This document shows, piece after piece, positions 1 through 47,356 of a DNA stretch of 64,000 nt. The notes beneath the pieces were generated by a model. The model was given only the letters and a program-made list of their open reading frames with translations, did not search any database and had not been told where the DNA came from. Source of the DNA: Candidatus Omnitrophota bacterium (GTDB taxonomy: Bacteria; Omnitrophota; Gorgyraeia; Zapsychrales; Fredricksoniimonadaceae); assembly GCA_044225175.1 (NCBI GenBank), contig JBGAJA010000004.1, positions 81,631-145,630 of the forward strand, given 5' to 3'. Numbering within the stretch: the first letter of the stretch is position 1; every line of letters begins with the position of its first letter. The translations under genes and the position numbers were made by a program.

Positions 1-1584
1 GCTATATGGCTCTAGATCATGAGGTGCTGCCAGCATGGCATGGTTAGCGGTAAATAAATTTTCTGATACTCGTGTTAGTCTTTTTACGCTTTTTGTGCCA
101 CTGATCATGGCTGGGTTTGTAGGACTTGATTTAATCTTATTAACTTTTCTCCATTTTTCTTCAATTTGCATGTAAAACTCTTCTGCCCTGTGTCTTAAAA
201 TATTAGTTCCATTAGCATCTGCCGCGGTTTCCCCAGACGCCATACTTTGTTTTAATTGATCAATTAAGACTTCCACTTCTTCTGAGGGTTTATAAGGAAT
301 AATACTGATGCTTATACGCAATAAACTTGCGAATGCCTTAGAAAGTCCTGTCAACATAGCTGGATTTGATGTTATTTGTAATACTTCTGTTGATCTTAAA
401 GAAGTATTATTGATTAATGCTAAATCAGCTCCTCCTGAAAAATATTTTCTAGAAATAGGCTGTTGGCTAATAGGATCCTGATCTTGCTTAATGTAGTTGT
501 AGACACCTTTTTTAAAGGCGTGGAGGTATTGATTGTAGATCAATTCAATATCCGTAGGGGCAGGTCCCTGTGCCTGCCCTTTTTTTGGATCAACATCATT
601 TTGTTGAGGGCGGCCACGGGCAGCCGCCCCTACGTATTGGATTCCTGCCGTTTTATTTTTATCCGCATACACCTGCGCCAAAATCGAATCTTTAATCTTC
701 TTCTTGTACCAAGTGGCTAGAATCAAAGAACTATAAACCTGCCTAAGCTGCACAAAATTGGCCCCTTCATTGATCTCCTTAGTCAATTCAGGAATAACAA
801 CCTCCCGTATGATCTGACTGTGCAAAAAGGTGTCAGACACCTTTTTATCAACCCGCCCCTTCAAAAAGGTGTCTGACACCTTTTTGGAGGCTACGTAGTC
901 TTCTTCTAACATCACTTTCAGCCTGGATTCCACTACATAGGCTGTTCCGGCCTTTGCATTCTCATAGACTACGGCTTTCTCGGGGACTATCCATACCTTG
1001 TTGAAAGTATTGACTGGGATATTGGTTGTTCCATACCTTTTGGCGGATTCTTCGTAGATTCTCTTCCAAAACTTACGGCCAATCTCTTCTTCTGGATACA
1101 TAAGGCTGGCTGTGATCTGTTTGAGCATGTAGTCCTGGGCCAAAAGGTCGCGGCCCATCTCGGTTTGGCCAAAGCTTTCGGGGACTATGCGGTTTTTTTC
1201 ATAGGGACTTAGATTCACCCATAGGTCGGCTTCTGGGGTGGTTAAAGAGGCCAAAAAGTACTTGATTAGACGGTTGGACTCTTCCTTCAATTTATGTGCA
1301 TCAGCGACGGAACGTGACCCTTGATCTAGGATAAAATCGAACATAAAAGGATTATCTGGATGGACCTTGATTCCTTTGAGCAAAGGAGGGTTCACAGGGG
1401 CGCTTAGATGCACCCTACCCCCAGATTTGGGCAAACGCAGCTGCTGAGCATAGGCTGGCAATGGGCCAATGGTATTAATTAAAAAAATGATGACCATCAG
1501 CCAAAGGCTGATCCGCCTTTGGCGGAAAAAGGCAAAAACAATCCCCAGGCACAAAGCCCTTCTTAACTTTACAATCTTAAACAT
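1..1584 (-). CDS. Giant modular secreted protein, paralog P1, N-terminal part; the gene continues beyond the window start
   Basis: Hand translation of the minus strand from ATG 1582-1584 (in-frame TAA four codons upstream) stays open to position 1. It has a signal-peptide-like N-terminus and clear homology to the N-terminal ~330 aa of the 3589-aa protein (LWVNLSPYEK, NTFNKVWI, KKVSDTF x2, RKYFSGG). It is missing from the ORF track only because no stop lies inside the window. Confidence 0.7.
   Translation of the reverse strand, partial: MFKIVKLRRALCLGIVFAFFRQRRISLWLMVIIFLINTIGPLPAYAQQLRLPKSGGRVHLSAPVNPPLLKGIKVHPDNPFMFDFILDQGSRSVADAHKLKEESNRLIKYFLASLTTPEADLWVNLSPYEKNRIVPESFGQTEMGRDLLAQDYMLKQITASLMYPEEEIGRKFWKRIYEESAKRYGTTNIPVNTFNKVWIVPEKAVVYENAKAGTAYVVESRLKVMLEEDYVASKKVSDTFLKGRVDKKVSDTFLHSQIIREVVIPELTKEINEGANFVQLRQVYSSLILATWYKKKIKDSILAQVYADKNKTAGIQYVGAAARGRPQQNDVDPKKGQAQGPAPTDIELIYNQYLHAFKKGVYNYIKQDQDPISQQPISRKYFSGGADLALINNTSLRSTEVLQITSNPAMLTGLSKAFASLLRISISIIPYKPSEEVEVLIDQLKQSMASGETAADANGTNILRHRAEEFYMQIEEKWRKVNKIKSSPTNPAMISGTKSVKRLTRVSENLFTANHAMLAAPHDLEPYS
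552..634. repeat. GC-rich palindromic element with CCGTAGGGG...CCCCTACG termini, inserted in-frame in P1
   Basis: Outer inverted repeat ccgtagggg/cccctacg with two inner hairpins (gggcagg-N8-cctgccc; gggcggc-N8-gccgccc). It is translated as a Gly/Ala/Pro/Arg-rich insert (YVGAAARGRPQQNDVDPKKGQAQGPAPTD) that the other paralogs lack at this position. Confidence 0.6.
824..885. repeat. Pair of 23-bp perfect palindromes AAAAAGGTGTC(A/T)GACACCTTTTT separated by 16 bp, in-frame in P1
   Basis: Copies at 824-846 (centre A) and 863-885 (centre T). Each encodes KKVSDTF on the minus strand. The same pair occurs in P3 and P4. Confidence 0.7.
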
Positions 1585-1630: not shown

Positions 1631-1654
1631 AAAAAGGTGTCTGACACCTTTTTT
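1631..1654. terminator. Palindromic hairpin AAAAAGGTGTCTGACACCTTTTTT immediately downstream of the bolA stop; putative bidirectional intrinsic terminator
   Basis: A-tract / 6-bp GC stem / T-tract. It lies between the convergent 3' ends of P1 and bolA. The same 23-mer occurs at 18501-18526. Confidence 0.45.
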
Positions 1655-1907
1655 AACATTTGGCTTGGATGGAAAGGGCGTGAATTTGGGATTTTAGGGG
1701 TTTTAGGGCTTCGTAGATCATGCGGTGGCGGTCGATTAGTTTAATGCCTTCGAAAACGGATGATTCAATGATGACTTGGTAGTGGCCACCTTCTTTGGCA
1801 CCAGCATGGCCAGCATGCTTGGCGCTATCATCAATGACCTCAAGATATTGCGGATGAAACTTCTCACGTAGGATGTTTTCTATATTTGCTTTAACCATAG
1901 TTTGCAT
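1653..1907 (-). CDS. BolA family protein
   Basis: 84 aa. Carries the BolA signature ...SSVFEGIKLIDRHRMIYEAL...IHALSIQA. Confidence 0.7.
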   Translation of the reverse strand: MQTMVKANIENILREKFHPQYLEVIDDSAKHAGHAGAKEGGHYQVIIESSVFEGIKLIDRHRMIYEALKPLKSQIHALSIQAKC

Positions 1908-1921
1908 TATACTATCTTTCT

Positions 1922-3211
1922 ATGAATAAAATATCTTTAGCTAATTTCACTCAAACGATTTGCGTCCCTTGCATCCAAAGCCAACAGCGCGAAATTCATG
2001 CCTGGCTCAAAGGTCTCGAAAAAAACTACACCCCCATTTACAGCTCTGTTGATATCCGCGATGCAGGTTTTAAAATCGCTGTTGTAGATACCAATCTCTT
2101 TCCAGCTGGTTTTAATAATCTTTGTGAGCACGGTGTTGAAGATGCCAAAACATTAATCAAAAATGCAATTCTCAAACGCGTCCCAAATGCCAAAGATATC
2201 CTAATCGTTGCTGAAGAACATACCCGCAATAGTTATTACCTAGAAAATATTCGTATTCTTCAAGACATCATTCAAAATGCTGGCTTTAACACCATTATTG
2301 CAACGTTCTTTAATGATGAGCCAACCTTTTGCCAGCAAACAGATAGCTCTGTTGATCTTGAAACATCAAGCGGGCAAAAAGTTAAAATCCATTGCTTCAA
2401 ACGAATCTTAGAAAAGATCAAATCTAAAGAAGCTCATTATGACATGATGATCATGAACAATGATTTATCAACCGGAATCCCTGAAGCGCTTCTTGAAGCC
2501 AATATTCCGATGTACCCTTCCATTCACGCAGGCTGGCATTCTAGACTCAAATCTGAACATTTCCGTCACACCAATGCATTAATGCAACAATTTGCTTACA
2601 TGGTAGGATTAGACCCATGGCTGTTTACTTGCCTCTATTCTCAAATTGACCACATTGATATTAACAAAGAAGAAGATCGCCAAAGACTCTACGTTCAATC
2701 TAAAGATTTATTTGAAAAAATCCAAGCAAAATACGATCTTCATAGTATTCAAGAAAAACCATTCATCTTTATCAAAGCTAACAGCGGTACATATGGCCTT
2801 GGAGTTGTTCCTATTGAATCTCCCGAACAAGTCCTTGAATTGAATCGTCGCAAGAGAAACGATCTCTCCCACGGCAAAAGCTCACAAGAGATCCATAACT
2901 TTATCCTTCAAGAAGGCGTTCCAACGATTCATTCAATTGGAGACAAACCTTCTGAAGTGTGTATTTATCAAATTGATAACAACTTAGTTGGCGGATTTTA
3001 TCGCTCTCATGCATCCAAAGGTTCAAGGGAAAACCTGAACTCCCCTGGCGGCATGAACTTCCAAAAAATGTGTCCTCATCTAGATAAGTACGGCCAAGAC
3101 TGCGGCATTGAACATAATTTAAACATCTTTGACATTTATCGTATCCTCGCTCGTATTGCCGGCGTTGCAGCGACCCAAGAAATCAAAGAATTGGAGAACA
3201 ATAAAACATGA
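1922..3211 (+). CDS. gshA: Putative glutamate--cysteine ligase (short GshA-type family)
   Basis: 429 aa. Immediately upstream of, and overlapping by 4 nt with, a clear gshB. Its length and motifs are compatible with the short GshA family. The assignment rests partly on context. Confidence 0.45.
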   Translation: MNKISLANFTQTICVPCIQSQQREIHAWLKGLEKNYTPIYSSVDIRDAGFKIAVVDTNLFPAGFNNLCEHGVEDAKTLIKNAILKRVPNAKDILIVAEEHTRNSYYLENIRILQDIIQNAGFNTIIATFFNDEPTFCQQTDSSVDLETSSGQKVKIHCFKRILEKIKSKEAHYDMMIMNNDLSTGIPEALLEANIPMYPSIHAGWHSRLKSEHFRHTNALMQQFAYMVGLDPWLFTCLYSQIDHIDINKEEDRQRLYVQSKDLFEKIQAKYDLHSIQEKPFIFIKANSGTYGLGVVPIESPEQVLELNRRKRNDLSHGKSSQEIHNFILQEGVPTIHSIGDKPSEVCIYQIDNNLVGGFYRSHASKGSRENLNSPGGMNFQKMCPHLDKYGQDCGIEHNLNIFDIYRILARIAGVAATQEIKELENNKT

Positions 3212-4143
3212 AATTCTTATTCTTAATGGACCCTCTTGAAATGATCAAGATGGAAACTGATACAACTTTTATTTTAATGTTAGAAGCTCATAATCGCGGA
3301 CATGAGGTTTATTATGTCCCTAAAGACGGCATCAGTTTAATTGAAGGAAAACTATTCTTTAATGCGATCAAAGTCAAAGTCCAAGCAATTCTCCATGAAC
3401 CTTTTACAAATGAACAGATGAAATACCTCTCCCAAGATGAGATCCATGCGTTTTTTATCCGTCCTGATCCTCCTGTTGATGAACAATACCTGATGAACAC
3501 ATGGCTGTTAGATCATATGCCAAAACATATTCCAGTTATTAACAGCGCTTCCGGAGTCCGTACAGTTAATGAAAAAATATGGTCCGCTCAATTTACCAAG
3601 TACACACCAGCTACCATCGTCTCAGGAAATAAAAAAGATCTTCTAGATTTTATTAAGCAGCATCGCAATGTCATTGCTAAACCAACCAATGGTTTTGGCG
3701 GACAGTCCGTCTTTCATATTGAAGAAGGTCATACCAATACAAAAGTTATTCTTGAAACATTAAGCAACGGATACTCCAAAACGATCATTCTTCAGAAATA
3801 TATCCCTGAATCTAAGAATGGTGACAAAAGAATTCTCTTACTCAACGGCGAGCTTTTAGGTGTTGTCTTACGTCTTCACGAAGAAGGCGAACATAGAAAT
3901 AACTTCTATGCAGGCGGCAAACCAATGCCGACAACCATAAATAAACGCGATGAAGAAATCATAGAAACCTTAAAACCACACCTACAACAATTAGGACTCT
4001 ACTTTGTGGGGATTGATATTCTAGGGGACTACTTAATCGAAGTTAATGTAACTTCACCCACATGCTTGCAAGAAATGAACCACCTCTATAATCAAAACCT
4101 TGAGAAAAAAGTCATTGATTTTGTAGAAAAATTGATAAAATAA
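3208..4143 (+). CDS. gshB: Glutathione synthetase (prokaryotic ATP-grasp type)
   Basis: 311 aa. Typical GshB N-terminus (MKFLFLMDPLE...DTTF) and ATP-grasp C-terminal half. Confidence 0.85.
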   Translation: MKFLFLMDPLEMIKMETDTTFILMLEAHNRGHEVYYVPKDGISLIEGKLFFNAIKVKVQAILHEPFTNEQMKYLSQDEIHAFFIRPDPPVDEQYLMNTWLLDHMPKHIPVINSASGVRTVNEKIWSAQFTKYTPATIVSGNKKDLLDFIKQHRNVIAKPTNGFGGQSVFHIEEGHTNTKVILETLSNGYSKTIILQKYIPESKNGDKRILLLNGELLGVVLRLHEEGEHRNNFYAGGKPMPTTINKRDEEIIETLKPHLQQLGLYFVGIDILGDYLIEVNVTSPTCLQEMNHLYNQNLEKKVIDFVEKLIK

Positions 4144-4149
4144 CGCCCT

Positions 4150-4392
4150 ATGCAAGAACTTACTCTATACCATTTCAACGGCTGTCCTTATTGTGCAAAA
4201 GTCCGCAACTATCTTGCTAAAGAAAAAATCACCATTCCTATGAAAGATATTCTTGAAAACCCCGGCTTTAGAGATGAACTTCTTAAAATTGGCGGTAAAA
4301 CCCAAGTACCCTGCCTGGTTATCAATGGTAAGGCTCTCTATGAATCTATGGATATTATTAAGTGGTTTGAAAATAATTATAAAAAATCATGA
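4150..4392 (+). CDS. Glutaredoxin (dithiol, CPYC)
   Basis: 80 aa with a CPYC active site and GG/TVP motifs. Confidence 0.8.
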   Translation: MQELTLYHFNGCPYCAKVRNYLAKEKITIPMKDILENPGFRDELLKIGGKTQVPCLVINGKALYESMDIIKWFENNYKKS

Positions 4393-4643
4393 CTGCCTAC
4401 ATAAAAGCTAAAATCGAAACCGCTCTTCCCAATGCAACGGCCTATGTCTTAGATCCCATGAATGACGGTCAACATTTACAGGCCTATGTAGTCTCTGAAG
4501 TCTTTGAAGGAATGCCTGTTTTTAAGCAACAACAACTCGTTATGACTGCCATCAAGGATGTATTTTCAACGGTCCATGCACTTGGTTTAAAGACTTTTAC
4601 ACCTACTAAATGGGAAGAAGTTAAATCACAATATGGATTTTAA
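4389..4643 (+). CDS. BolA-like protein
   Basis: 84 aa. Shows the BolA-like pattern (VSEVFEG...VHALGLKTF) and sits between two glutaredoxins. Confidence 0.55.
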   Translation: MTAYIKAKIETALPNATAYVLDPMNDGQHLQAYVVSEVFEGMPVFKQQQLVMTAIKDVFSTVHALGLKTFTPTKWEEVKSQYGF

Positions 4644-4662
4644 TTAATAAGGAGAGATTAAT

Positions 4663-4977
4663 ATGTTATCTGAGGCTCTTAAAAAACAAATCGAAAATGA
4701 TATCAAAAACAATAAAGTCGTCATCTTCATGAAAGGCACTGCTGATCAACCTATGTGCGGCTTTTCTGGAAGATCTATCCAAATTCTTCAATCCTACAAT
4801 GTTCCCATCAAAGATTACAATGTACTCGCCTCCGAAGAAATCCGCCAAGGCATCAAAGAAATGACTAACTGGCCTACCATCCCTCAAATATTCGTCAATG
4901 GAGAATTTATCGGCGGATGTGATATTGTCACTGAAATGCATGAAAACGGTGAGTTAGCTACCCTTCTAAAATCTTGA
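4663..4977 (+). CDS. grxD: Monothiol glutaredoxin (Grx4 type, CGFS)
   Basis: 104 aa with a CGFS active site and the WPTIPQIFVNGEFIGGCD motif. Confidence 0.85.
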   Translation: MLSEALKKQIENDIKNNKVVIFMKGTADQPMCGFSGRSIQILQSYNVPIKDYNVLASEEIRQGIKEMTNWPTIPQIFVNGEFIGGCDIVTEMHENGELATLLKS

Positions 4978-6509
4978 TGGCATCTTGGTTCCGACGATCT
5001 GCTGTATCCTTATTCTTCTTAGGTCTACTCCTGTGTGGTCTAAGTATTTATAAAGACTATGGTGTGCATTGGGATGAATATAATAATCAAGAGTTTGGAC
5101 ATAAGTGGAAAGTCTATGTTCTAGATGTTGCACATACTGGCTCTATCACTCAAAGTTATCCAACCGTAGATGAAATGGATTTGAGGCATGGGCCATTTGT
5201 CGAACTATCCCTTAACTTTTTGAAGAATGCCCTCAAGATCAACTCGCTTAAGGAAATCATCCTCTTTCGCCACCTTTGTTGCTTCTTTATTTTTATCTTA
5301 GGCGTCTTTTTCTTTTACTTGTTATGCAACCGTTTCTTCAAAGACTGGAAAATTGCCCTTCTAGGCTGTGTATTTCTGGTTTTAAGCCCTCGCATTTTTG
5401 CACATAGTTTTTATGACACCTTTGATATTCCTTTCTTATCTTTTTATGTCATTAGTATTTACACTATGTTTCGTTTTCTCGATCAAAAAAACGTGCCCAA
5501 TGCTATTTTTCATGCTTTGGCTTGCGCCATATTAATTGATACCAGACTTGCCGGCTTAATCATTCCTCTTTTAACATTGATCTTTTTTAAACCTAAAGAT
5601 ATTAAGCCATTTTTCTTGTATGGACTGTCTTTAATCTTCTTAGTTATCCTTGGATGGCCCTTATTGTGGCCTGACCCCTTAACAAACTTTCTAAAAGTAT
5701 TTCTAGAAACGCACAACTCCAACTTCCCTTATTCCTGTCTTTTCTGGGGAAAATTCTATATGGGCTATGATTTACCCTGGTACAGCACATGGGTATGGAT
5801 TTTCGTCACTACTCCTTTATTTTACAGTGTATTCTTTCTCATCGGCTGCGTGTTTATGATTAAAGATTTCAAAATTACAAAATTTGATATCCACCAACGA
5901 AATACAATTCTAATCTTCTTGTGTTTTCTAATCCCCTTACTATTAGCTAACGGAAAAACATATAATGGCTGGAGGCATCTTTATTTTATTTATCCTCCCT
6001 TCTTGATGATCACCTTAATCGGCCTCTTTTCCATATGGAAAGAAATTCGAACAAATTTAGACGGACAAATGCGAAACGTTCTTCAAACAATAGTTCTAGT
6101 CATCACTTCTATGAGTTTGGCTGGCATTCTATGGATGATGATCAAACTTCATCCTTATGAACACGTCTACTTCAATCGACTGGCAGGAAAAGACATGCAT
6201 GAAGTCAAAGGCCGCTTTGAACTGGATTATTGGGGAGTTTCCTATAAGCAGGCATTGGAATACCTTCTTAAACATGATCCTCAAGAATTGATTTCTATTT
6301 CAGGGGGAGACAATTCCTGGCCCCTTATTACCAACAACTTAAATATCCTTGACCCTCAAGATAAAAAGAGATTTATACAAACAACCCCTGACAAAGCCCA
6401 ATACATGATTACAAACTATCTGCAGCACCCAAATGACTATCCATTTCCTAAATACGCATCCCTTTCTATCGGAAATGCAGAGATTTTAACCATTTATAAG
6501 CTCAAATAA
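4974..6509 (+). CDS. Polytopic membrane protein, putative GT-C glycosyltransferase (ArnT/PMT-like)
   Basis: 511 aa with more than 10 predicted TM helices and an acidic HWDEY motif in the first extracytoplasmic loop. Coupled to grxD by a 4-nt overlap. Confidence 0.4.
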
Positions 6510-6549
6510 CCTTTTGACAACCCTCACGATTTCACCTATCTTTAACGAT

Positions 6550-9500
6550 ATGAAAAAAGCACCTCAAGACAGCATTTTACGGACTCTTTTGAATCAGCGG
6601 ATCCTTATCCTCGACGGAGCCATGGGCACCATGATTCAAAAGTATAAGCTCACCGAAGAACAATACCGGGGGATACGATTTAAGGATTGGAAGAGCGATA
6701 TTAAGGGAAACAATGATCTTCTCTCCCTGACCCAGCCCCACATCATTGAAGAAATTCACAGCCAATACTTCCAAGCTGGCGCAGATATCATTGAAACTAA
6801 CACCTTCAATTGTAATCGTATCAGTATGGCCGATTACAACATGGAAGAGCTGGTTTATGAGCTCAATGTGGCAGCTGCAAAGATCGCCAAAAAAGCTGCT
6901 GAAAAATTCAATAAAGCTAATCCTAATAAACCAAGATTTGTAGCTGGTGCCATTGGTCCTACGACCCGTACTGCGTCGTTATCTCCTGATGTTAATAATC
7001 CAGCTTTCCGAGCTGTAACCTTTGATCAATTGGTCGAAGCCTATAGCGAGCAAATCAAAGGTCTCATGGATGGCGGCGTTGATCTTCTTTTGATTGAAAC
7101 CATCTTTGATACGCTAAACGCCAAAGCTGCGATTTATGCGGTTGAGCTATACAATGAAAAAGTTGGCTACAAGATTCCCTTGATGATTTCTGGAACAATC
7201 ACGGATGCCAGCGGGCGTACATTATCAGGACAAACAACCGAAGCGTTCTGGATTTCCATGAGACACGCACGTCCTTTAAGCATCGGTCTTAACTGCGCCC
7301 TTGGCCCCAAGGATATGCGCCAATACATCGCAGAGCTTTCCCGAGTCGCCGATTGTTTTGTTAGCTGCTACTCAAATGCTGGACTTCCCAATGCCTTTGG
7401 AGAGTATGATCTAGGGGCTGATGATATGGCCACAATCGTCAAAGAATTCGCCCAAAGCGGACTCATTAATATTCTTGGCGGTTGTTGCGGAACAACACCG
7501 GACCATATCAAAGCCATGGCTCATATGGTTGATGGCCTTCCTCCACGGACTATTCCCCATATTAAACATTACAGTTCCTTCTCGGGACTTGAGCCATTTA
7601 TCATTCATGAAAATACGAATTTTGTGAATGTTGGCGAGAGAACCAATGTCACTGGATCCAAGCAATTTGCCCGTCTCATTATTGGTGGAAAATTTGATGA
7701 AGCCCTTGCGGTTGCCCGCCAGCAAGTAGAAAATGGGGCTCAAATGATTGACGTGAACATGGATGAAGCCATGCTTAATTCTCAGGAGTCCATGACTAAA
7801 TTTCTCAATCTAATTGCCTCCGAACCAGACATATCCAAAGTTCCCATCATGATCGATTCATCTAAATGGTCAGTCATTGAAGAAGGCCTTAAGTGTGTCC
7901 AAGGCAAAAGCGTTGTGAACTCAATTAGTCTTAAAGAAGGTGAAGCTCCTTTCAAAGAACAAGCCAAGAAAGTCCTTCGCTATGGAGCTGCTGCGGTTGT
8001 CATGGCATTTGATGAACAAGGTCAAGCAGATACCGTGGAGAAACGAGTGAGCATCTGTAAAAGAGCTTTCAAAATTCTGACTGAAGAAATCGGCTTTGAT
8101 CCTCAAGATATTATCTTTGATCCAAACATCTTTGCGATTGCAACTGGGATTGAAGAACACAATAACTATGCGGTTGACTTCTTTGAAGCAACCAAGCAAA
8201 TCAAAGCTGCCTGCCCGGGCTGTTTAATTTCTGGTGGCGTATCCAATGTTTCCTTTTCTTTTCGTGGTAATGATCCTGTGCGTGAAGCTATGCATGCCTC
8301 GTTCCTCTATCACGCCGTTCACGCTGGCATGGATATGGGAATTGTGAATGCTGGAATGATTGCGGTCTATTCTGAAATCCCAAAAGACTTCCTTGAGCTT
8401 ATTGAAGATGTCATTCTAAATAGACGTCCTGATGCAACTGAACGCTTGGTTTCCTTTGCTGAAACTGTCAAAGCCACGGGTGAAAAGAAACAAGAGGATC
8501 TTGCTTGGAGATCGCTGCCTGTGGAAGAACGATTATCTCATGCTTTAGTCAAAGGAATTGTGGACTTTATCGACGTGGATACAGAAGAAGCACGTCAGAA
8601 ATCCACCCGTCCTTTAGATGTTATTGAAGGCCCATTAATGAATGGGATGAATGTGGTTGGAGATTTATTCGGCTCAGGAAAAATGTTCTTGCCTCAAGTT
8701 GTCAAAAGTGCCCGTGTCATGAAGAAGTCCGTCGCCTACCTTCAACCTTTCATTGAAAAAGAAAAAGATCAGACTGCCAAAGCAGCCGGTGTGGTTGTCA
8801 TGGCAACTGTTAAAGGTGATGTGCATGACATTGGAAAGAATATCGTAGGAGTCGTACTAGCCTGCAATGGCTTCAAAATCATTGATCTGGGCGTCATGGT
8901 TGCCTGTGACAAGATTCTTAAGACTGCTCAAGAAAACAAAGCGGACATGATTGGTCTTTCTGGACTTATTACCCCCTCTCTCGATGAAATGGTCAATGTC
9001 GCAAGTCAAATGCAAAAAGAGAATTTCTCTATACCTCTTTTGATTGGCGGAGCTACAACTTCCCCTGCTCATACAGCTGTTAAGATTGCGCCTGCTTATA
9101 ATCGAAATATTGTCATCTACATTAAAGACGCCTCTCGCAGCGTTGGCGTATGCCGCACGCTCATGGATGATAAAACCAAGGATGATTTAAAGAAGCAAAC
9201 ATTGAAGGATTACGAAAATCTACGCCAAGAACATGCTTCCAGACAAGCTTCTAGGAACTTTGTAAGTATAGACAAAGCTCGGCAAAAAGCCTTTGTTACT
9301 GATTGGACCAAAGCAGAGATCACCAAGCCTTCTTTCCTTGGACTTAAGACATACAAAGACTTTGACCTTAATGAAATCCGTAAACGCATCGACTGGTCAT
9401 TCTTCTTTATTGCCTGGGAGCTTAAAGGAAAATTCCCACAAATCTTAAAAGATCCCGTCTATGGTCAGCAGGCAACTCAAGTCTATAATGATGCCAATGC

Positions 9501-10233
9501 CCTTTTAGATGAAATCATTGCCAAGAAACTTCTAACTGCTCATGGAGTTGTTGGCTTCTTCCCTGCTAATTCTGTAGGAGATGATATTGAAATCTACACA
9601 GATGATACAAGAACCAAGGTCACAGATGTTTTCTATAACTTACGTCAACAAAATGTGATTAACGACAACCAACCTATGCTATCCCACGCAGATTACATTG
9701 CTCCTAAATCATCAGGAGTTAAAGACTACCTTGGCCTGTTTGCGGTCACAGCTGGAATTGGTTTGGATGAATTGGTCAAAAGATTTGAAGATGATCACGA
9801 TGATTATAAAAGCATTCTGGCCAAAGCTGTGGCGGATCGCCTTGCTGAAGCTTTTGCGGAACTTATGCACCTTAAAGTCCGTCGTGAACTTTGGGGATTT
9901 GCCAAAGACGAACAATTAACGGATGAACAAATTAACTTGGGTCAATATAAAAGCATTCGCCCTGCTCCAGGCTATCCTGCCTGCCCTGATCACACAGAAA
10001 AAGCCACTCTCTTTAAAGTCTTAGATGCAACTAAGAATACCGGTATCAACTTAACGGAAAGCTTTGCTATGTATCCAACAGCTGCTGTCTGTGGTATTTA
10101 CTTTGCCCACCCACAATCAAAGTACTTTTCTATTGGAAAAATAGAAAAAGACCAAGTCCAAGACTATGCCAAACGAAAAAACATGGACCTGCCGGAAGTT
10201 GAAAAATGGTTGGGACCTAATTTAGGGTATTAA
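6550..10233 (+). CDS. metH: Cobalamin-dependent methionine synthase
   Basis: Collinear with, and highly similar to, E. coli MetH through the Hcy, pterin, B12 (DxHxxG) and AdoMet domains. The start was moved from the TTG at 6514 to the ATG at 6550, which aligns with the E. coli N-terminus. Confidence 0.95.
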
Positions 10234-18526: not shown

Positions 18527-20640
18527 TTTTTTCTATATGGTGCCAAAGACTTCAGGTATTCAACTGGTGGATTATAGCCTAAAAGCTGGGCTTCTTCCAG
18601 ATAATGAATAGCGCCGGCAAAGTCTCTAGATTTAAAAGAAAGTATCGATAAATTTACAAATGCGCTTTGATGGTTTTTGTTGATGCCAACTGTTTTCAAA
18701 TAAGAAGCCATAGCCTCTGCGTCTTGTCCTAGCTGAGCATATACATTTCCCATATTGTAGTAAGCTTCTGCCTGCTGAGAATCTTTTTCTAAAGATTTTT
18801 CGTAATAATTTAAAGCTTCTTTCAACTCTCCTGCCGACTCAGATAGGTACCCCAAATAAAAATAAGGTTTGGCATCCCTAGGGTCTAAATTTATTGCTTT
18901 TTGATAAAACATTCTTGAGCGATCAAGATCAGAAAGCGCATTGTAAATAATCCCAAGGTTTAAATAACCTTGAGCATGCTTTGGATAAAAGTGCAGCAAT
19001 TGTTGGTAAACCATAAGAGCACTCTTTAAATCCCCCATTTGTTGGTAACGATTGCCCAGATTTAATAATGCCTTCTCATAACGAGGATTTAACTCCAAAG
19101 ACTTCTTATAAAAACGAATCGCTTCTTCAAAACCACCAACCTGCTCATACAAGAAACCCAAATTTAAATAGTCTGCCGCTGTGTATTTCTTTCTTTTCGA
19201 TATCTCTTCAAAATTTGAAAGAACTTCTTCTCTTTGCTCCTGATACAGTTTTTCTTGAGGATTCTTTTCAATACCATCGGAATAGGCTTTAATAATACGC
19301 GAATAAATCTCTTCATCTTCAGGATTGAATTTTAAAAGACGATTAAAATGATCTATCGCACTTCGAGGGTTATTCATCTTTTGAGATAGCACTCCCAAAC
19401 TAAAAAGAACATCTTTCGCCTTTGGATCTATCTCCAAAGCTTTGTTATATATCAACAGCGCTTCATTATTCTTTTCAATGTCCTCATAAACCTTTCCCAA
19501 ATGAAGATAGGAATCCATATAAGTACCATCTTTGCCAATAGCTTGTTTATAAAGGTCAATGACTTCCTCCATCTTCCTAAACTTCGACTTATCAATCGAG
19601 ATCTTATTCTCAGCAGCTCCTTGCGAAACCAATTCCACATATGCACGATAATCATTTTGCGACTGTTGGTATTCTGGAGTTTTCTCAATAGCTTCAGCCA
19701 AATAATTAAAAATAACTGGCCGGGGATTAAGTTTTAGCTGATGTTTCCACAAACTTACAGTATCTAACCAAACAAAACACTGGTAATAGGTTAAAATGGA
19801 CAAGCCCATCAAGAGCGTAGCTAAAGCAGCCATAAAGATCTGACCCAAGATTGCTTCCTGAGTCTTTAAAAACCGATACAAACGCCCTATCCAAAAAGCA
19901 GTGAATAAAGATACCATCACTAATGGTAAATAGAACAAATGATCTCTAAATAAGAAAGGTGGTGAAAGAAATATTGCTTTATTGTTAATGATTGCAAAAA
20001 CAAATGCAATCAGAAGAAATGGCCAGTATTTTATAAGATTGATTTGTTTTTTCTTTATCCAATCCATACAAATAATTGCCAATGGCAGACTAATCGCATG
20101 AGCTGAAGAAAGCATACTTAACAAGGCAAAAACTAAGCTTAATCTGAAGTTATCATTACGGTAATAAAGGATGGATAATAAATAAAACAAAACATACAGA
20201 AGCTCTTTTCTTTGCGATAGCCATCCTACCACCTCGACTTGTAAAGGATTTAACGCAAAAATTAAAGCTCCTCCAAATGCTTCAAAAAGACTCAGCTCAA
20301 AACTTATGGCCAATAAAAAAACTAAAATCACCACAGCGATATGCAGCAAAACATTGTCCAAATGAAACAGTAATGGGTTGAACCCCGCAATAAGACGCTC
20401 CAAAGAATAAGATAAAATGGGTATGGGAATATATTGATGATCGAATGAACGAGTTAGTATCGCCTTAATGTGCGCTCCATCAAAATTCTGCACATTGACA
20501 TTCTTAGTAATTAAAAGATCATCTTTATAGGAAAGAAAATGCGCTTTTAGAAGAGGACTGTAGCTTAAGAAAGTACACACAATTAATAATAAAATTAAGA
20601 GTGTTCTCCTTGAGGAAAATAACCGCGAGAATAAAGACAT
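18523..20640 (-). CDS. TMTC-like protein: N-terminal polytopic GT-C (PMT_2/DUF1736-like) domain fused to C-terminal TPR repeats
   Basis: 705 aa. The first ~300 aa contain ~9 TM helices, with YKDDLLITKN after TM1 and a ...LNPLQVEVVGWLSQRKELL motif resembling the DD and hP.h.E.V motifs of TMTC/PMT-like O-mannosyltransferases. The remaining ~400 aa are at least 9 TPR repeats. Confidence 0.55.
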   Translation of the reverse strand: MSLFSRLFSSRRTLLILLLIVCTFLSYSPLLKAHFLSYKDDLLITKNVNVQNFDGAHIKAILTRSFDHQYIPIPILSYSLERLIAGFNPLLFHLDNVLLHIAVVILVFLLAISFELSLFEAFGGALIFALNPLQVEVVGWLSQRKELLYVLFYLLSILYYRNDNFRLSLVFALLSMLSSAHAISLPLAIICMDWIKKKQINLIKYWPFLLIAFVFAIINNKAIFLSPPFLFRDHLFYLPLVMVSLFTAFWIGRLYRFLKTQEAILGQIFMAALATLLMGLSILTYYQCFVWLDTVSLWKHQLKLNPRPVIFNYLAEAIEKTPEYQQSQNDYRAYVELVSQGAAENKISIDKSKFRKMEEVIDLYKQAIGKDGTYMDSYLHLGKVYEDIEKNNEALLIYNKALEIDPKAKDVLFSLGVLSQKMNNPRSAIDHFNRLLKFNPEDEEIYSRIIKAYSDGIEKNPQEKLYQEQREEVLSNFEEISKRKKYTAADYLNLGFLYEQVGGFEEAIRFYKKSLELNPRYEKALLNLGNRYQQMGDLKSALMVYQQLLHFYPKHAQGYLNLGIIYNALSDLDRSRMFYQKAINLDPRDAKPYFYLGYLSESAGELKEALNYYEKSLEKDSQQAEAYYNMGNVYAQLGQDAEAMASYLKTVGINKNHQSAFVNLSILSFKSRDFAGAIHYLEEAQLLGYNPPVEYLKSLAPYRKK

Positions 20641-22892: not shown

Positions 22893-22949
22893 GTAGGGGC
22901 AGGTTCTAAACCTGCCCCTTATAAGGGTGGGTTTGGAACCCACCCCTAC
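22893..22949. repeat. Intergenic palindromic element GTAGGGG...CCCCTAC with two inner hairpins
   Basis: gtagggg-caggttctaaacctg-cccctt / aagggtgggtttggaacccacccctac. Same termini as the in-frame elements. Lies between the ppdK stop and the sigma-factor start. Confidence 0.6.
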
Positions 22950-25769: not shown

Positions 25770-25797
25770 GTACGGGCGGGGTCACCCCGCCCCTACG
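25770..25797. terminator. GC hairpin gggcggggt-c-accccgccc flanked by gtac/ctacg; putative terminator of glyQS
   Basis: Perfect 9-bp arms located immediately after the glyQS stop. The termini resemble the TAGGGG/CCCCTA element family. Confidence 0.5.
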
Positions 25798-36093: not shown

Positions 36094-36300
36094 CCTCTTC
36101 CAGAATTCTTTCCTCTATCTTTTCTTCCGGATACAGCAAGGATGCCATGATCTGTTTTAAGATATAGTCCTGATCTAACAGCTTCATCCCCATCACTGTT
36201 TCCCAAAATCCTCTGAGATCATTCGGTCTTTTTCATAGGGACTTAGGTTCACCCATAGGTGGTCATTGGGTATGGCTAAGGTTGAGAGGAAGTATTTGAT
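36093..36300 (-). pseudogene. Frameshifted junction between the P3 N-domain ORF and the main ORF
   Basis: Aligned with the P4 segment 46840-47180, this stretch shows +1 (cc-t-c vs ccc), -1 (ttt vs tttt), -1 (ggg vs gggg, inside the CCGTAGGGG terminus) and -3 differences. All lie in or next to homopolymers. Confidence 0.5.
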
Positions 36301-36590
36301 TAGTTTGGTCGATTCTTGTTTGATGTCCGTAGGGTATGATTTATCATGCCCTTTAATTGGGTTTGATGAATCAAACCCCTACGGTTAGGGTTTTCATCCG
36401 CATCCATCACAAAATCAAACTCAAAAGGCCGATTCGCATGCACCTTAAGGCCCTTCAACATAGGCACATTGCTGGCCATCGCAACCTCGTAGGTTCGTAA
36501 GGGCAGGTTCCCCTGGGCCTGGGCTGGGATTGGGCCTAGACCGGTTATCAAAAAGCTCACCAATGTTAAAATTGAGAATGGTTTTTTCAT
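36300..36590 (-). CDS. N-terminal domain fragment of P3 (96-aa ORF with signal peptide)
   Basis: Identical at the nucleotide level to the 5' end of P2 (27197-28312). Its start overlaps the P4 stop (ATGA). Confidence 0.55.
   Translation of the reverse strand: MKKPFSILTLVSFLITGLGPIPAQAQGNLPLRTYEVAMASNVPMLKGLKVHANRPFEFDFVMDADENPNRRGLIHQTQLKGMINHTLRTSNKNRPN
36327..36384. repeat. In-frame palindromic element copy in P3 (left terminus CCGTAGGG, one G short)
   Basis: Same element as at 28045-28103 and 47086-47144. Confidence 0.6.
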
Positions 36591-45500: not shown

Positions 45501-47356
45501 ATCGCTTCATCAGTTAATCCATACTTTTTTCTTAAATTTTTTAAAAGAAAAGCTTGTCTTTCTACAATACTCCAAGGATCCTCTTCTGAGGCCTCAATAG
45601 ATTCCCAATATTCTTTATCCACATACCAAGCAACTTTCATCCCGGGATTGTTGTGCTGAATCCAAGTTAAATGTTCTTCAATCTCCTTCTTAAAACCAAA
45701 ATGAAACATACTGATGTTTTTATTTAAAATAATAATTATATTTTTATCATCAATAAGGGTCCTAAACAGATAACCATACTCCCTTAATCGAGCCTCAAGT
45801 AAGCTGATAAAATGAAATTCTATTTTCACATTAGACGTTCTATCTTGAGTGGGTGCGGTTGTGATCGCAACAGATGGTGTTTGTGTTGCTGAATTTGATG
45901 AAGTTAATGGAATAGAAGGAAGACTTTTCTTCTTCTCTTCTAAAACTTTGATGACCTCACCAAGCCTCTCAATGACCCATTGAAAATTATTGGAACTTTG
46001 TTCCTCCAACGCTTGAAAACTATCCTTAGATTGTTTTAACTCTTGAATTGCTTCTTCCACCTTCTCTTGAGAATCTAATGGCTTATCTAAAATGTTCTTG
46101 ATGGTTTGTTCTACATCTTGTCTGTCTTTCAAAGTGGGACTATGGGTCATGGCAGGATCAATGGATTTGAATTCACTTCGTACTGCAAATAAATGTGACT
46201 TCTCAAAGGATTGCATGGCTCGATCTTGAATCTCTTTAGGAACACTTGACCAGTCTTTGTACACCATAGCCTGGTCTAATGCTGCCTGTGGATTGAATCC
46301 TCCTGAGAAATATTTTCGTGCTACCATCTGACCTGTGATCTCGTCTTTTTCCTCCTTAATATAATTGAACACGCCCTTCTTATAGGTCTTAAGATAGTTT
46401 TGGAATATCTTCTCTTCTTCCTTAGGATCTTTCTTCTGTAACCCTTGGGTCTTGCCTTTGTTCACATAGGCTTTAGATAGAACACTCTTTTTTAGCTCTT
46501 TCTTGTACCAAGCTGCCAAGACCATGGAATTGACAATCTGGCGTAAGGGGGCAAAGTCTTTGGATTGGTTGACTGCTTTCTCTAACTCAGGAATCACGAT
46601 CTCACGGACAATTTGACTACATAAAAAGGTGTCAGACACCTTTTTATCCATCTGCCCGCTCAAAAAGGTGTCTGACACCTTTTTGTGGGCTAAATAGTCT
46701 TCTTCCATCATTACCTTCAATTTCACATCCAACACCCATACTGTGTTGTCTTTCATCAAAAGTGATGCCTGATCCGGCAATATCCATACCTTGTTAAACG
46801 TATTAATCGGCACATTGGTATTCCCATACTTCTCTTGTACCTTCCCATACACCCTCTTCCAGAATTCTTTCCCTATCTTTTCTTCCGGATACAGCAAGGA
46901 TGCCATGATCTGTTTTAAGATATAGTCCTGATCTAACAGCTTCATCCCCATCACTGTTTTCCCAAAATCCTCTGAGATCATTCGGTCTTTTTCATAGGGA
47001 GATAGGTTCACCCATAGGTGGTCATTGGGTATGGCTAAGGTTGAGAGGAAGTATTTGATTAGTTTGGTCGATTCTTGTTTGATGTCCGTAGGGGTATGAT
47101 TTATCATGCCCTTTAATTGGGTTTGATGAATCAAACCCCTACGGTTAGGGTTTTCATCTCCCGCATCCATCACAAAATCAAACTCAAAAGGCCGATTCGC
47201 ATGCACCTTAAGGCCCTTCAACATAGGCACATTGCCGGCCATCGCAACCTCGTAGGTTCGTAAGGGCAGGTTCCCCTGGGCATAAGTGGGCATGGGGCCT
47301 ATGATAGAGCTAACGATGAAGCAAACTAATATAGTTAAACTTAATGGGGTTTTCAT
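36587..47356 (-). CDS. Giant modular secreted protein paralog P4 (3589 aa): N-domain, helical region with a Gly-X-Y tract, VWA, two AAA+ (MoxR/AAA_5-like) modules, WD40 propeller, shared C-terminal tail
   Basis: Signal peptide. HELFH at ~nt 44850. 13 consecutive G-X-Y triplets (GEQGQQ...GQS) at ~43205-43330. VWA MIDAS motif (VSFVMDRSGSMG) at ~41950. Degenerate P-loop (LIGETGLGKDE) at ~40715 and Walker A (FVGKPGTGKST) at ~39525. WD40 repeats at 36850-37800. C-terminal ...ITPMPLPDFVQNHKS. Confidence 0.8.
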   Translation of the reverse strand: MKTPLSLTILVCFIVSSIIGPMPTYAQGNLPLRTYEVAMAGNVPMLKGLKVHANRPFEFDFVMDAGDENPNRRGLIHQTQLKGMINHTPTDIKQESTKLIKYFLSTLAIPNDHLWVNLSPYEKDRMISEDFGKTVMGMKLLDQDYILKQIMASLLYPEEKIGKEFWKRVYGKVQEKYGNTNVPINTFNKVWILPDQASLLMKDNTVWVLDVKLKVMMEEDYLAHKKVSDTFLSGQMDKKVSDTFLCSQIVREIVIPELEKAVNQSKDFAPLRQIVNSMVLAAWYKKELKKSVLSKAYVNKGKTQGLQKKDPKEEEKIFQNYLKTYKKGVFNYIKEEKDEITGQMVARKYFSGGFNPQAALDQAMVYKDWSSVPKEIQDRAMQSFEKSHLFAVRSEFKSIDPAMTHSPTLKDRQDVEQTIKNILDKPLDSQEKVEEAIQELKQSKDSFQALEEQSSNNFQWVIERLGEVIKVLEEKKKSLPSIPLTSSNSATQTPSVAITTAPTQDRTSNVKIEFHFISLLEARLREYGYLFRTLIDDKNIIIILNKNISMFHFGFKKEIEEHLTWIQHNNPGMKVAWYVDKEYWESIEASEEDPWSIVERQAFLLKNLRKKYGLTDEAMSSPPSKDYERASLQEVMKDYFTLKQDMVIALDNSDEPAFHVAYQSMLNVVGPLSQKTTEQGFESALKAAHQVYAQGKIDRLFFLGEIRNPHEFESKFMALYEEMLVVGNKGLSKETRGIVDQIIDETVEELFDGTAQEVWKKRLREDVKSYYFGDLLEPLFKIGPFDQWRESAADLLVNMNSVIGMSGGLFDPLSKKVYVKDKATEWFIRLALKHELFHYFANQGEIHIPFKWEDITHAVSVLEIERFVKGDEGLFEKKLIEFAAMTQEPAAVDLFKRGRQIAEQGETGFMINPGTSDRQAGYFSVEYLLSEARAVYEEQGQSADLLLNSYAAQRAVGILIAGVFSEMKAKDPDIKPLRLLKDFFQVLYERYALSEDPKVGHGIAKITDDILKFAGTSAGQQVELKGTPRGLWRYQSKSDYVGELHYVPTDIYPRLYDGTSRNDLEGQIEAARERGLGLAFIAISQVKFGLRGLMKNLPDSSKGNSITQTLWDTLLFPKSVRLGIDVTSKSILSGQADQSLQGASLWVGRVLRDRYDLGDTKAHQLVAKALLSSLPLHLQYLDSLMYRRFHYDPQEQSMKDPRVNNPALETAVVRTMGSLDDAKDYGWLKLLFHPKYIQDAQIVKAIGEKIWPVYLELFEKAKKTEERWRAYQRKMKEEKKEALRREFDQMTEEQKQQLEDFWNSLDEKTKEAIRKAVQEQMDEAQEEFGQSGSQGQPTPQDQEGEGEQGQQGQQGQQGQQGQQGQSGKQGQAGQQGQPGASGQQGQSQGPGKPQGSRGSQGRYIPGQGQKQGGSHDIKDVEKTMKDLAGQLSDLNKKIEEMTQGLEGMKGKVGDVNASGIESKPLDDQRKTADDLKGKAKDIQSKAQNLLNQAREASSASSNQKDATEGMRQNLPSPEEGKEASDSSKEFDGKIQDLLNQIHDLQEKANALKKGTDQLSDKLSEPKPDGPQVQGQVRQIERTVGEIREQVDQTSSKTKDASNKLSDLQSKIDSLKQSLEQSSKKSQNQPSQSSSSNSQPASEDQPQQHKPATKDSQELSMPDKVNIPDVDDFLNSQRPTTPPVRPITVKPFDPLAAARAEEEMIKNRTGLTMDEWKEYNKWLEIEITNKGKTITVGKLIQRFTKALEVLTLPSVDITFERDLEQGAILANVVAAISGGPAFGKWKPNEPLPVKVSFVMDRSGSMGVDNERGIFPIQMARIIYFVMMSAILNHNEVRQSRGYAPIEFEVGLFVDAPGETMISHETSRKQNFRKERVLYDVWKKLNAGGGTHYASNLFKYIERLLSSQDSVSSGEKSIRILFALTDEDVDEDQKGKVHTTLQQAEDEGAHVYIIPLGNMNQVRASQLQNKEYPHRVIAPASFGDLPNAVMDSFANSIRAPAPGVSWLDSVDAAMTSDPQVQFGEMKPLGDYKHFFTQTRNGYEFLVFKRPNEEALYWQRGLGGSNVPTTTIPMTASTEDKMIKILDALYNSNHIDMSYSADHRYGLRQIEDGQIELLQKDDNHGGYTPIKVFDSVSIDIPKDDIAKELPISELQEGQWNIYKINSEKVFAYNHNDGEVIIFKKSSQWEVESRLRFNNETASDSWDGIAVRLIGETGLGKDEILMATAHLLNEEVYVMSGDGDLDVEDLESGPQSVGAEEAGTSGVIPSGLNEVMHKGGWFVIREAHKIRQSVLNSLKSHITGKTHKWPIVRDGITRFETLPNHPRARLLASVNRIRSGITGTSFEANAPMQDRFKDVEFYWDWPEDEVAWQLEYALNLARQKGIHKDDWENFRQKLQNDITELVRIAAELRLSFAGYSAQQQAVIFANRESWNLLDSNYLVQKMAQDPQIMDLFKNGPASGIAQNLKRPPSPRVIKNIITHFINFEKDWEYRPLSVIQYYYNFKAEEDRNNTYQGALHAFKAWRIDSPNKPPLEFKESSFKVDGDYLIITPSGASAEFWDPIRVPLHPKAEIRSGRLPSEIKEWIESAKNSLKLYVYLQGHGLGKHAIFVGKPGTGKSTMTFAIQKLLNAPGILKAEINEETRRYHLTFSRALKSFRTRFFPGILPSIMDDGHGHGQILNMDESNQGRPSVLSLLNEYAERNMIHDPTKESQVTFGQPGSGIIHTINRPGSGERIKSFPDDFIERHMVIDFEDMPPQEMVYYLNEAAVGKSIVDSLQFAVNPHLIGEPKLDAGGKPKKYPDGEIEYSGIIGIAQEISRRQIKDPTFFPRNKEISIRNLKSFVKAIVRQFNYRQSKGIISQKILLDLLLENLTLEGDAANLIRWRSNIVQVFIDQGLFSKDPTKNALEDFLKGEGVLVQNLPVIREPQTGFEDIDRVLRFLQTNTMGNIDRQIETLQQRLEILFDEMTVQQNVTIQNNAPAGSNLTLPTLVTIGEKIKRFNMARDAYQVLGVILDKRCDITLPPAHTQENRARIDNLRAIIRTAIIAKKGWPSKFLEEGADWILKLRLDEMVINKTTGNQMTRLQSFEQMLYGLQEYGVRTFYLKDSAMNALRDNARDVKDIIEGILKRPQDTIKDVQGIIDLLEVQKGHLETLAGGDVHVFSEAIALLNEEIGKLKTRKELLATASVPVVSGRKIDDKFKPVKVDAKEQLEILPKDQIGAPKKLGNYRGFVRSAAFSPNGKQVATAHEDGKVRIWSVRTGKLLRVFEGHEKNYQVFSVAFSPDGQRIISGSQDNTARIWSVKTGKVIKKLNSPKPVMRVAFSPDGRLALAASWDNVIVWDSKTRQKISTSISAVERAPLEAFAFSPDASKVAVPSDDGNIDLLDVTTGVKIMTYVGNKREVLAVAFSPDGRRIAIASDDHIVKVWNVSTGKVLKNINVQSDESARFNITLIFSTDGSKILTSTEDGRMKVYDVITGNQIMTFHAGTDYNFVFIAFHPDGKSFIGTTVGLAAIYQLFKSSAPSDRAMLKESDLGGIDLNPDVLKVDVKNQGQTPDLGNSNIPLEFKEIIGLVPIIKDITPMPLPDFVQNHKS
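46623..46684. repeat. In-frame pair of AAAAAGGTGTC(A/T)GACACCTTTTT palindromes in P4
   Basis: Copies at 46623-46645 and 46662-46684. Encodes AHKKVSDTFLSGQMDKKVSDTFL. Confidence 0.7.
47086..47144. repeat. In-frame 59-bp CCGTAGGGG...CCCCTACGG palindromic element in the P4 N-domain
   Basis: Identical to the P2 copy apart from one base (catgattt vs tatgattt). Confidence 0.6.

Follow-up and report, generated by a model that had tools for sequence, protein, structure and literature searches.

A 23-base palindrome in giant genes of a Candidatus Omnitrophota bacterium as a probable untagged REP/REPIN family associated with RAYT transposases

Introduction

In a stretch of 64,000 nucleotides from a Candidatus Omnitrophota bacterium (GenBank assembly GCA_044225175.1, contig JBGAJA010000004.1, positions 81,631 to 145,630; hereafter the window), a 23-base palindrome, AAAAAGGTGTCWGACACCTTTTT, stands directly behind the stop codons of two genes and recurs in pairs inside the coding sequences of three paralogous giant proteins, designated P1, P3 and P4. 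P1 and P4 share 48.5% identity, and the question raised by this locus is how the same palindrome came to be preserved at the nucleotide level in such diverged paralogues. A preliminary description of the DNA had explained this by selection on a DNA or RNA structure, such as a bidirectional terminator, an attenuator, an RNA-processing site or a recombination hotspot. Based on the distribution of the repeat in other genomes and its position beside transposase genes, we consider it very probable that the 23-mer is a repetitive extragenic palindrome (REP) and that the doublets are REP doublets forming hairpins (REPINs), that is, non-autonomous miniature mobile elements copied by a REP-associated tyrosine transposase (RAYT) and tolerated in a loop of the giant proteins. 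The 23-mer would then represent an untagged REP/REPIN family tied to a widespread RAYT clade and would belong to a known class of elements rather than being a regulatory device.

REP/REPIN elements and their RAYT (TnpA-REP) transposases are known in Escherichia coli and Pseudomonas fluorescens (PMC3116915, PMC2817692, PMC5581495, PMC8266576). REPs usually sit right behind stop codons, and the two described super-families are defined by GTAG or CGTC tags (PMC3733652). Intragenic REP dimers that encode 20-30 amino acids (aa), sometimes twice per open reading frame (ORF), have already been documented (PMC3733652).

Copies of the 23-mer in the window

When the window was searched with AAAAAGGTGTCWGACACCTTTTT and up to three mismatches were allowed, eight matches were obtained, starting at 824, 863, 1631, 18501, 35864, 35902, 46623 and 46662. 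Seven of the copies are exact and the copy at 35902 carries one mismatch, whereas 100 dinucleotide-preserving shuffles of the window gave no match at all (an expected count of 0 against 8 observed). A looser pattern that included related variants detected no weaker, variant or decayed copies elsewhere in the window. The eight copies comprise two singles at gene ends and six copies arranged as three doublets within the paralogous giant genes (Table 1). The singles that had been placed after the stops of bolA and of a TMTC-like gene are real, each sharing one A with the TAA stop codon of bolA (1653-1907, minus strand) or of the latter, a TPR gene (18523-20640, minus strand). The pairs of A-centred and T-centred copies were likewise found in P1, P3 and P4, the A-centred copy coming first and the T-centred copy second in all three doublets. 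The spacing of 16 nt previously given for all pairs holds for P1 and P4, and in P3 the spacing is 15 nt.

The doublet of P1, on the minus strand, is read as KKVSDTFL-KGRVD-KKVSDTFL and corresponds to P1 residues 234-254. The earlier statement that every genic copy is read as KKVSDTF applies to five of the six, which lie in the KKVSDTFL frame; in the P3 copy at 35902-35924 one T is deleted, and the reading there is QKGVRHLL, in a different frame. The doublet period of 39 nt (23 + 16) is divisible by three and only one reading frame of the three contains a stop, so that each doublet simply adds about 21 hydrophilic residues, and the P1 and P4 ORFs are uninterrupted by their doublets.

An independent short-read contig (run SRR28480385) matches the window across 10.3 kb with 100% identity, the bolA copy included. 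A sequencing-adaptor or assembly artefact was ruled out, since the ORFs are open, the independent assembly agrees and the repeat is present in long-read, single-cell and isolate genomes. The idea of a DNA uptake sequence was also rejected, as the half-sites are not over-represented on their own and all but two of the AAAGGTGTC/GACACCTTT 9-mers lie within full palindromes.

Table 1. Positions of the 23-mer copies, the GTAG-tagged REPs and their host genes in the window.
Feature	Coordinates	Strand	Remarks
Single REP, bolA/P1 interval	1631..1653	.	1-nt overlap with bolA TAA; 47 nt upstream of P1 ATG
Single REP behind TPR gene	18501..18523	.	1-nt overlap with TAA stop; 6 nt upstream of tRNA-Arg(CCT)
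REPIN-like doublet, P1	824..885	-	REP 863-885, 16-nt spacer 847-862, REP 824-846
REPIN-like doublet, P3	35864..35924	-	First coding-strand copy 35902-35924 with 1-nt deletion
REPIN-like doublet, P4	46623..46684	-	Reads KKVSDTFL-SGQMD-KKVSDTFL
GTAG-tagged REP dimer GTAGGGGCAGG...GCCGCCCCTAC (other REP family)	554..633	-	In frame, second variable loop of P1
GTAG-tagged REP dimer	47088..47142	-	In frame, third variable loop of P4
GTAG-tagged REP dimer like that of P4	36329-36382		In P3
GTAG-tagged REP dimer like that of P4	28047-28101		In ORF 27197-28312
GTAG-tagged REP dimer, intergenic	22893..22949	.
GTAG-tagged REP, single	25774-25796		Further intergenic copy
P1	1..1584	-	N-terminal part of giant protein, leaves window; Omnitrophota-specific N-terminal domain hosting the element
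P3	28309..36590	-	Giant WD40 protein; long ORF 28309-36093; P4-like stretch up to ATG 36590, broken by 1-nt indels
P4	36587..47356	-	3589-aa giant protein; AAA_5 and WD40 domains

The 23-mer in other genomes

A scan covering one genome per species detected the exact 23-mer in more than 100 stretches of DNA, which is a lower bound, and these represent seven or more other phyla. Taxa given in the record titles are Planctomycetota, Gamma-, Beta- and Alphaproteobacteria, several Bacillota, Nitrospirota, Actinomycetota, Bdellovibrionota, Parcubacteria and Saccharibacteria, and one single-cell genome and one isolate are among the sources. In 100 foreign loci there are 117 exact copies, several per genome, in DNA whose GC content ranges from 31 to 73% and whose flanks are unrelated. 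The palindrome is often extended by lineage-specific flanking bases, for example AATAAGTT...AACTTATT in Syntrophomonadaceae. When all A4-stem-T4 palindromes were counted in 680 kb of the palindrome-selected loci, the 23-mer accounted for 126 copies, and no other stem occurred more than once.

According to crude ORF calls, about 40% of the foreign singles lie within -20 to +40 nt of the 3' end of an ORF, and several supply or overlap the stop codon, while their central base shows no bias relative to the upstream gene (18 vs 15). Among close pairs, the A-then-T order seen in the window was found 17 times, T-then-A once and the direct arrangement 11 times. A viral origin was rejected, the 23-mer having no match in IMG/VR; two shuffled-stem control palindromes had none either, which makes the comparison with the controls uninformative. 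A 55-nt doublet query retrieved nothing from PLSDB, to which the low-complexity filter of BLAST may have contributed. Literature searches with the DNA strings, the asymmetric variants and the peptides KKVSDTF, KGVRHLF and KRCLTPF/KRCQTPF gave nothing relevant in article text as distinct from figures, and this specific 23-mer family appears to be undescribed there.

Linkage to RAYT transposase genes

In a Syntrophomonadaceae locus (L015) and a Nitrospiraceae locus (L024), copies of the repeat 0.7-0.9 kb apart bracket a single ORF. The two ORFs match Pfam Y1_Tnp (PF01797) with E values of 1.6e-11 and 1.5e-13, respectively, and score 80.4 and 71.7 bits against NCBIfam NF047646 (REP-associated tyrosine transposase), for which the cut-off is 80. 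The HUH motif and the catalytic Tyr are kept in the RAYT ORFs, the associated transposases are about 225-231 aa long, and they belong to a very large protein family (at least 8000 matches); a sequence search of the PDB with the RAYT returned no match. By tblastn, RAYT genes were detected in 8 of 100 palindrome-selected loci, and a REP of this family lies within about 150 nt of the RAYT gene in six loci (L005, L014, L015, L024, L031 and L056). In a reciprocal test, four RAYT homologues were picked by protein similarity alone (L185, L186, L187/L188 and L189/L190). A REP of the family was present about 55 nt upstream of the ATG in all four, and in two of them an inverted copy also lay across the stop codon. 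The REPs on the two sides of a RAYT gene, left and right, follow the A-then-T polarity of the doublets. The commonest form beside RAYT genes is the asymmetric AAAAGGTGTCAGGAACCTTTT, from which the perfect palindrome of the window differs at two loop positions. Given that the 23-mer stands beside RAYT genes across phyla, a selected regulatory structure is not needed to explain its occurrence.

The left REP, some 55 nt ahead of the RAYT start codon, is followed directly by TTGAC (L014, L185, L186, L189) or TTGAT (L024), and in L187-L190 the TGA stop codon of the RAYT gene lies inside the right REP; the repeat may thus overlap both the promoter and the end of the transposase gene. L189 (3506-4177) and L190 (3367-4038) also hold a second Y1_Tnp gene in tandem, flanked by another palindrome, GAAAAGGGGACATTCTA / TAGAATGTCCCCTTTTC, which resembles the GGGGACAT hairpins of Omnitrophota linkers.

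Nucleotide conservation between P1 and P4 and the age of the doublet

In a codon alignment of the N-terminal domains of P1 and P4, 60% of all nucleotides and 41% of third positions are identical. Within the palindromes, 15 of 16 codons are identical, compared with a background of 62 of 146 (42%) for codons of identical amino acids. The longest identical runs are two of 26 nt, which coincide with the palindromes, and the next longest is 15 nt, while the 16-nt spacer is identical at only 11 of 16 positions. The extra nucleotide conservation claimed for the element is therefore real, and the comparison of synonymous divergence that had been proposed as a check places the palindromes above the rest of the domain in codon identity.

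The suggestion that selection accounts for this identity found no support as the main explanation. More than 120 foreign homologues are nearer to P1 than P4 is, among them all 120 listed, and 119 of the latter do not carry the element, the exception being P0001, an ortholog at 83% identity with the same 21-residue peptide. As the nearer homologues other than P0001 are without the element, its identical form in P1 and P4 need not imply prolonged purifying selection. From the sequence comparison, the doublet would most simply be younger than the split of P1 and P4, and the identity of the element in the two genes is better explained by late arrival of the repeat than by long purifying selection. 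Neither the 23-mer nor, by tblastn, any RAYT gene was found in 751 kb of other Omnitrophota loci, and a metagenome scan revealed no relative nearer than 65% identity.

The permissive loop of the N-terminal domain

In the N-terminal region of P1, a signal/transmembrane helix precedes a conserved domain of about 350 aa. This domain has no Pfam match, and a Foldseek search of PDB folds with its AlphaFold model gave nothing significant. Among its 1510 homologues, all those with a named source are from Candidatus Omnitrophota/Omnitrophica, save one partial match labelled Minisyncoccia. The P1-type domain is uncharacterised and heads many Omnitrophota proteins, giants included. The doublet lies in the most variable segment of the domain and replaces the hypervariable linker between the conserved LKVMLEEDY and SQIVREIVIPEL motifs. 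In the AlphaFold model, which is confident overall (predicted local distance difference test score, pLDDT, 79; predicted template modelling score, pTM, 0.74), the doublet loop comprises residues 240-250 between the helices 227-239 and 251-273 and has a pLDDT of about 51. The element therefore behaves as an in-frame palindromic insertion at a permissive site, in that the ORFs stay open, 119 of the 120 listed homologues do without it, and the site is a variable loop of low pLDDT.

For the same linker, 83 distinct homologous versions were read as DNA, 45 of which are short (up to 78 nt) and 38 long, with segments of the same gene as controls. Among the long linkers, 35 of 38 fold better than the same-gene controls and 27 of 38 possess a perfect stem of 7 bp or more. 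The short linkers show no excess structure, with 25 of 45 above the controls and 5 of 45 having such a stem. DNA hairpins were confirmed in the linkers of L101-L103. Twelve of the 38 long linkers have 14-mers that recur elsewhere in their own locus, frequently in a second variable loop some 300 nt further downstream. The linkers in L104-L183 hold several other recurring hairpins, for example ATTCCCGCGAAAGCGGGAAT ('VIPAKAGIQ'), GTAGGGGCGGGTTCACAACCCGCCC, GGGGACATG...CGTGTCCCC, CCCTCCCCCTTGTGGGGAGGG and GTCATTGCGAGG...CTCGCAATGAC. Some of the hairpins bear a GTAG tag or agree with GGGGWSAS, the motif reported for TIRYT repeats.

Classical GTAG-tagged REPs are present in the same genome and in the same proteins (Table 1). 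The dimers are G+C-rich and are translated as YVGAAARGRPQQNDVDPKKGQAQGPAPT in P1 and as NRRGLIHQTQLKGMINHxPT in the P3/P4 group, and the second loop of P1, which holds one of them, has a pLDDT of 51-60. The intergenic dimer and the intergenic single indicate that this genome also has ordinary extragenic REPs. Together with the loop occupied by the 23-mer doublet, three loops of one domain carry REP dimers.

Alternative explanations

Among the alternatives, use of the doublet by the host has the most in its favour, although we judge it improbable as the primary explanation. According to this proposal, the 23-mer is a host-used REP derivative, the duplex of the doublet serving as an RNase III site or a translation brake and the singles as 3'-end stabilisers or attenuators, with this function keeping the copies perfect. 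When the in-frame pairs were folded, as had been proposed, the doublet RNA gave a stem of 24 bp without mismatches, at -36 to -38 kcal/mol (z -5 to -8), with -37.8 kcal/mol for the 24-bp stem of P1. The perfection of all copies contrasts with the divergence of the spacer and flanks, the junctions in P1 and P4 are identical, and an influence of REPs on the stability and termination of mRNA is known (PMC3733652). However, recent spread would explain perfect copies equally well, and the same loop in other Omnitrophota contains unrelated hairpins or none, so that no particular structure is required there. Rfam gave no match over the whole window at gathering thresholds, and near the doublet only generic miRNA-hairpin matches below threshold appeared. 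REPs near stop codons affect mRNA, and a secondary host use of the doublet duplex or of the stop-adjacent REPs may exist beside the mobile nature of the repeat.

That the copies are dedicated bidirectional intrinsic terminators which arose independently and lie in some genes by chance is very unlikely. The A-tract, stem and T-tract of a terminator are present in the 23-mer, both singles abut a stop codon, and the copy at 18501 was flagged by a consensus terminator scan. The hairpin of a single 23-mer, however, is weak (-9 to -10 kcal/mol), contains 3 G-C pairs and locks its U5 run in the stem by pairing with A5. A tRNA-Arg(CCT) gene predicted by ARAGORN at 18417-18494 on the minus strand begins 6 nt past the palindrome at 18501, which makes this copy a poor fit with an efficient terminator, as the tRNA gene would then be promoterless. 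Convergence, moreover, cannot produce one and the same 23-mer across phyla while other A4-stem-T4 palindromes are missing from the same loci, and it leaves the position of the repeat on both sides of RAYT genes unexplained. The weak hairpin, the nearby tRNA gene and the character of a dispersed, RAYT-flanking repeat likewise speak against an attenuator, processing site or recombination hotspot under selection as the primary explanation. The tRNA gene was not reported by the gathering-threshold Rfam scan.

It is scarcely credible that the conserved entity is a peptide, KKVSDTFL twice, selected as protein with the DNA palindrome being incidental. The common frame of five of the six genic copies and the identical 21-residue peptide of P0001 are what this explanation would predict. 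On the other hand, none of the remaining 119 listed homologues has the peptide, the segment varies more than any other part of the domain and forms a low-confidence loop, one P3 copy is read in another frame, and codon identity in the palindromes far exceeds the background given above. The same 23-mer is also non-coding in the window and in other phyla. The preliminary description was right to treat it as a DNA-level entity rather than a protein motif, for the genic and intergenic copies are the same, one genic copy is in a different frame and homologues do without the peptide. As little weight can be given to an operator or another site to which a DNA-binding protein of the host attaches, for instance a nucleoid or segregation factor, with parS-like conservation across phyla, since the perfect palindrome, its invariance across phyla and the copy 47 nt upstream of the P1 start are set against many scattered copies per genome mostly 3' of genes, doublets of fixed polarity, consistent linkage to RAYT genes and to no other gene, and absence of the 23-mer from the 751 kb of other Omnitrophota DNA.

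Comparison with known systems

The 23-mer resembles REP/REPIN-RAYT systems in being a short palindrome with many dispersed copies, often just downstream of ORFs, in forming inverted doublets with a short spacer and fixed polarity, and in flanking, in other genomes, a Y1/HUH transposase gene. It differs in being a perfect palindrome within A5/T5 that bears no GTAG tag, and in being identical in many phyla, whereas the known systems are described as mostly vertical and lineage-specific. Its transposases of about 225-231 aa, which have no PDB match by sequence, and a cognate RAYT unseen in the 64-kb window are further differences.

TIRtrons and their TIRYT genes, described by Di Nocera et al. (2013, PMC3733652), are RAYT-like genes flanked by untagged, partly self-complementary inverted repeats. 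They share with the 23-mer system an untagged repeat that flanks a tyrosine transposase gene at a fixed distance and moderately abundant families occurring as singles, dimers and clusters, whereas the reported common motif of their terminal inverted repeats (TIRs) is GGGGWSAS (PMC3733652) and not GGTGTCAG. The 23-mer was not found in the main text or supplements of that paper, figures aside, and identity with one of its families is possible.

Rickettsia palindromic elements (RPEs) and intragenic REPs (cited in PMC3733652) are likewise in-frame palindromic insertions at permissive sites that leave ORFs open, often as dimers, and add 20-30 residues. RPEs, however, are 100-150 bp long and have no known transposase, in contrast to a 23-bp unit and a 62-bp doublet here, and the likeness is one of behaviour only, with no sequence relation to the 23-mer. 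The hosts differ too, since here they are giant Omnitrophota proteins with REP dimers in three loops of a single domain. IS200/IS605 insertion sequences (ISs) possess an enzyme of the same superfamily (Pfam Y1_Tnp), and recognition of a subterminal hairpin in single-stranded DNA is the likely mechanism. Unlike these insertion sequences, the 23-mer repeats would move without carrying a gene, and the RAYT gene looks single-copy and is flanked by REPs rather than IS ends.

Proposed mechanism and its weighing

Based on these comparisons, a possible route for the spread of the 23-mer was proposed. A single-copy HUH/Y1 tyrosine transposase, RAYT or TIRYT-like, may recognise the repeat as a hairpin in single-stranded DNA and could copy 23-mer units around the genome. 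Copies would survive directly behind stop codons, the usual position of REPs, and other surviving copies would be those in frame in a tolerant, hypervariable loop of the paralogous giant proteins. A cognate RAYT is presumably encoded in this genome and may have mobilised the present copies, and the genic copies are probably mainly tolerated passengers.

Several observations weigh against identifying the 23-mer as a RAYT-mobilised REP. The 64-kb window contains no RAYT gene. No conserved GTAG or CGTC tag was found in the flanks of the 117 copies, the family being untagged. All eight copies of the window are essentially perfect and no decayed relics accompany them, which is unusual for an old REP population. 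The doublets of P1 and P4 stand at exactly the same codon with a spacer of equal length and 11/16 identity, which is not expected of simple independent transposition. Possible reasons are targeted insertion, a copying event between the paralogues after which the arms were maintained, or use of the hairpin by the host. The taxon labels are mostly based on metagenome-assembled genomes, and some bins may be contaminated, yet contigs of 0.9-2.6 Mb are included. As to position, REPs are predominantly extragenic near ORF 3' ends; in the window, two of the eight copies are singles at stops and six are genic.

Side features of the host genes and neighbourhood

When the N-terminus of P3 was compared with P4, five 1-nt indels were found, mostly in homopolymers and with the lost T of the palindrome among the run, plus one 3-nt deletion. 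The P3 domain (36093-36590) is split between a 96-aa ORF and the long ORF. The N-terminus of P3 is either that of a decaying paralogue or the result of consensus errors within a repeat of about 1 kb. A 371-aa ORF at 27197-28312 (minus strand) is nearly identical to P3/P4 over its first ~100 residues, including its GTAG-REP dimer, and then diverges, a pattern that points to recent recombination or duplication among the 5' ends of the paralogues. Adjoining P1 is a thiol-redox cluster (1653-10233) with two BolA proteins, two glutaredoxin-like proteins, GshA, GshB, a PMT_2-family protein and a cobalamin-dependent methionine synthase.

Implications

With the 23-mer read as a REP, the apparent riddle of a 'conserved' palindrome in diverged paralogues becomes a recognisable REP/REPIN case, and the presence of a repeat beside Y1 transposase genes in other genomes offers a route by which such cases may be recognised. 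REP/REPIN-type elements would thereby be extended to Candidatus Omnitrophota and to giant genes, and REP dimers in three loops of one domain affect gene calling, domain annotation and protein-family alignments for uncultured bacteria. A more far-reaching proposal, which we put forward tentatively and regard as rather unlikely in its full form, is that one invariant 23-base REP travels with a very large clade of RAYT-like proteins of about 225 aa and has spread horizontally to at least eight phyla, including the candidate phyla radiation (CPR) and Omnitrophota. In Omnitrophota, several REPIN families would occupy the same codons of the three loops through targeted or recurrent insertion and would generally serve to diversify these loops, and the copies would possibly be kept perfect by host use of the hairpin. 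If this is true, the horizontal spread of one REP would contradict the strictly vertical, lineage-specific picture of REPIN-RAYT systems. The identity of the repeat across phyla, together with an abundant and poorly described RAYT clade, provides a lead on how REP-RAYT systems spread.

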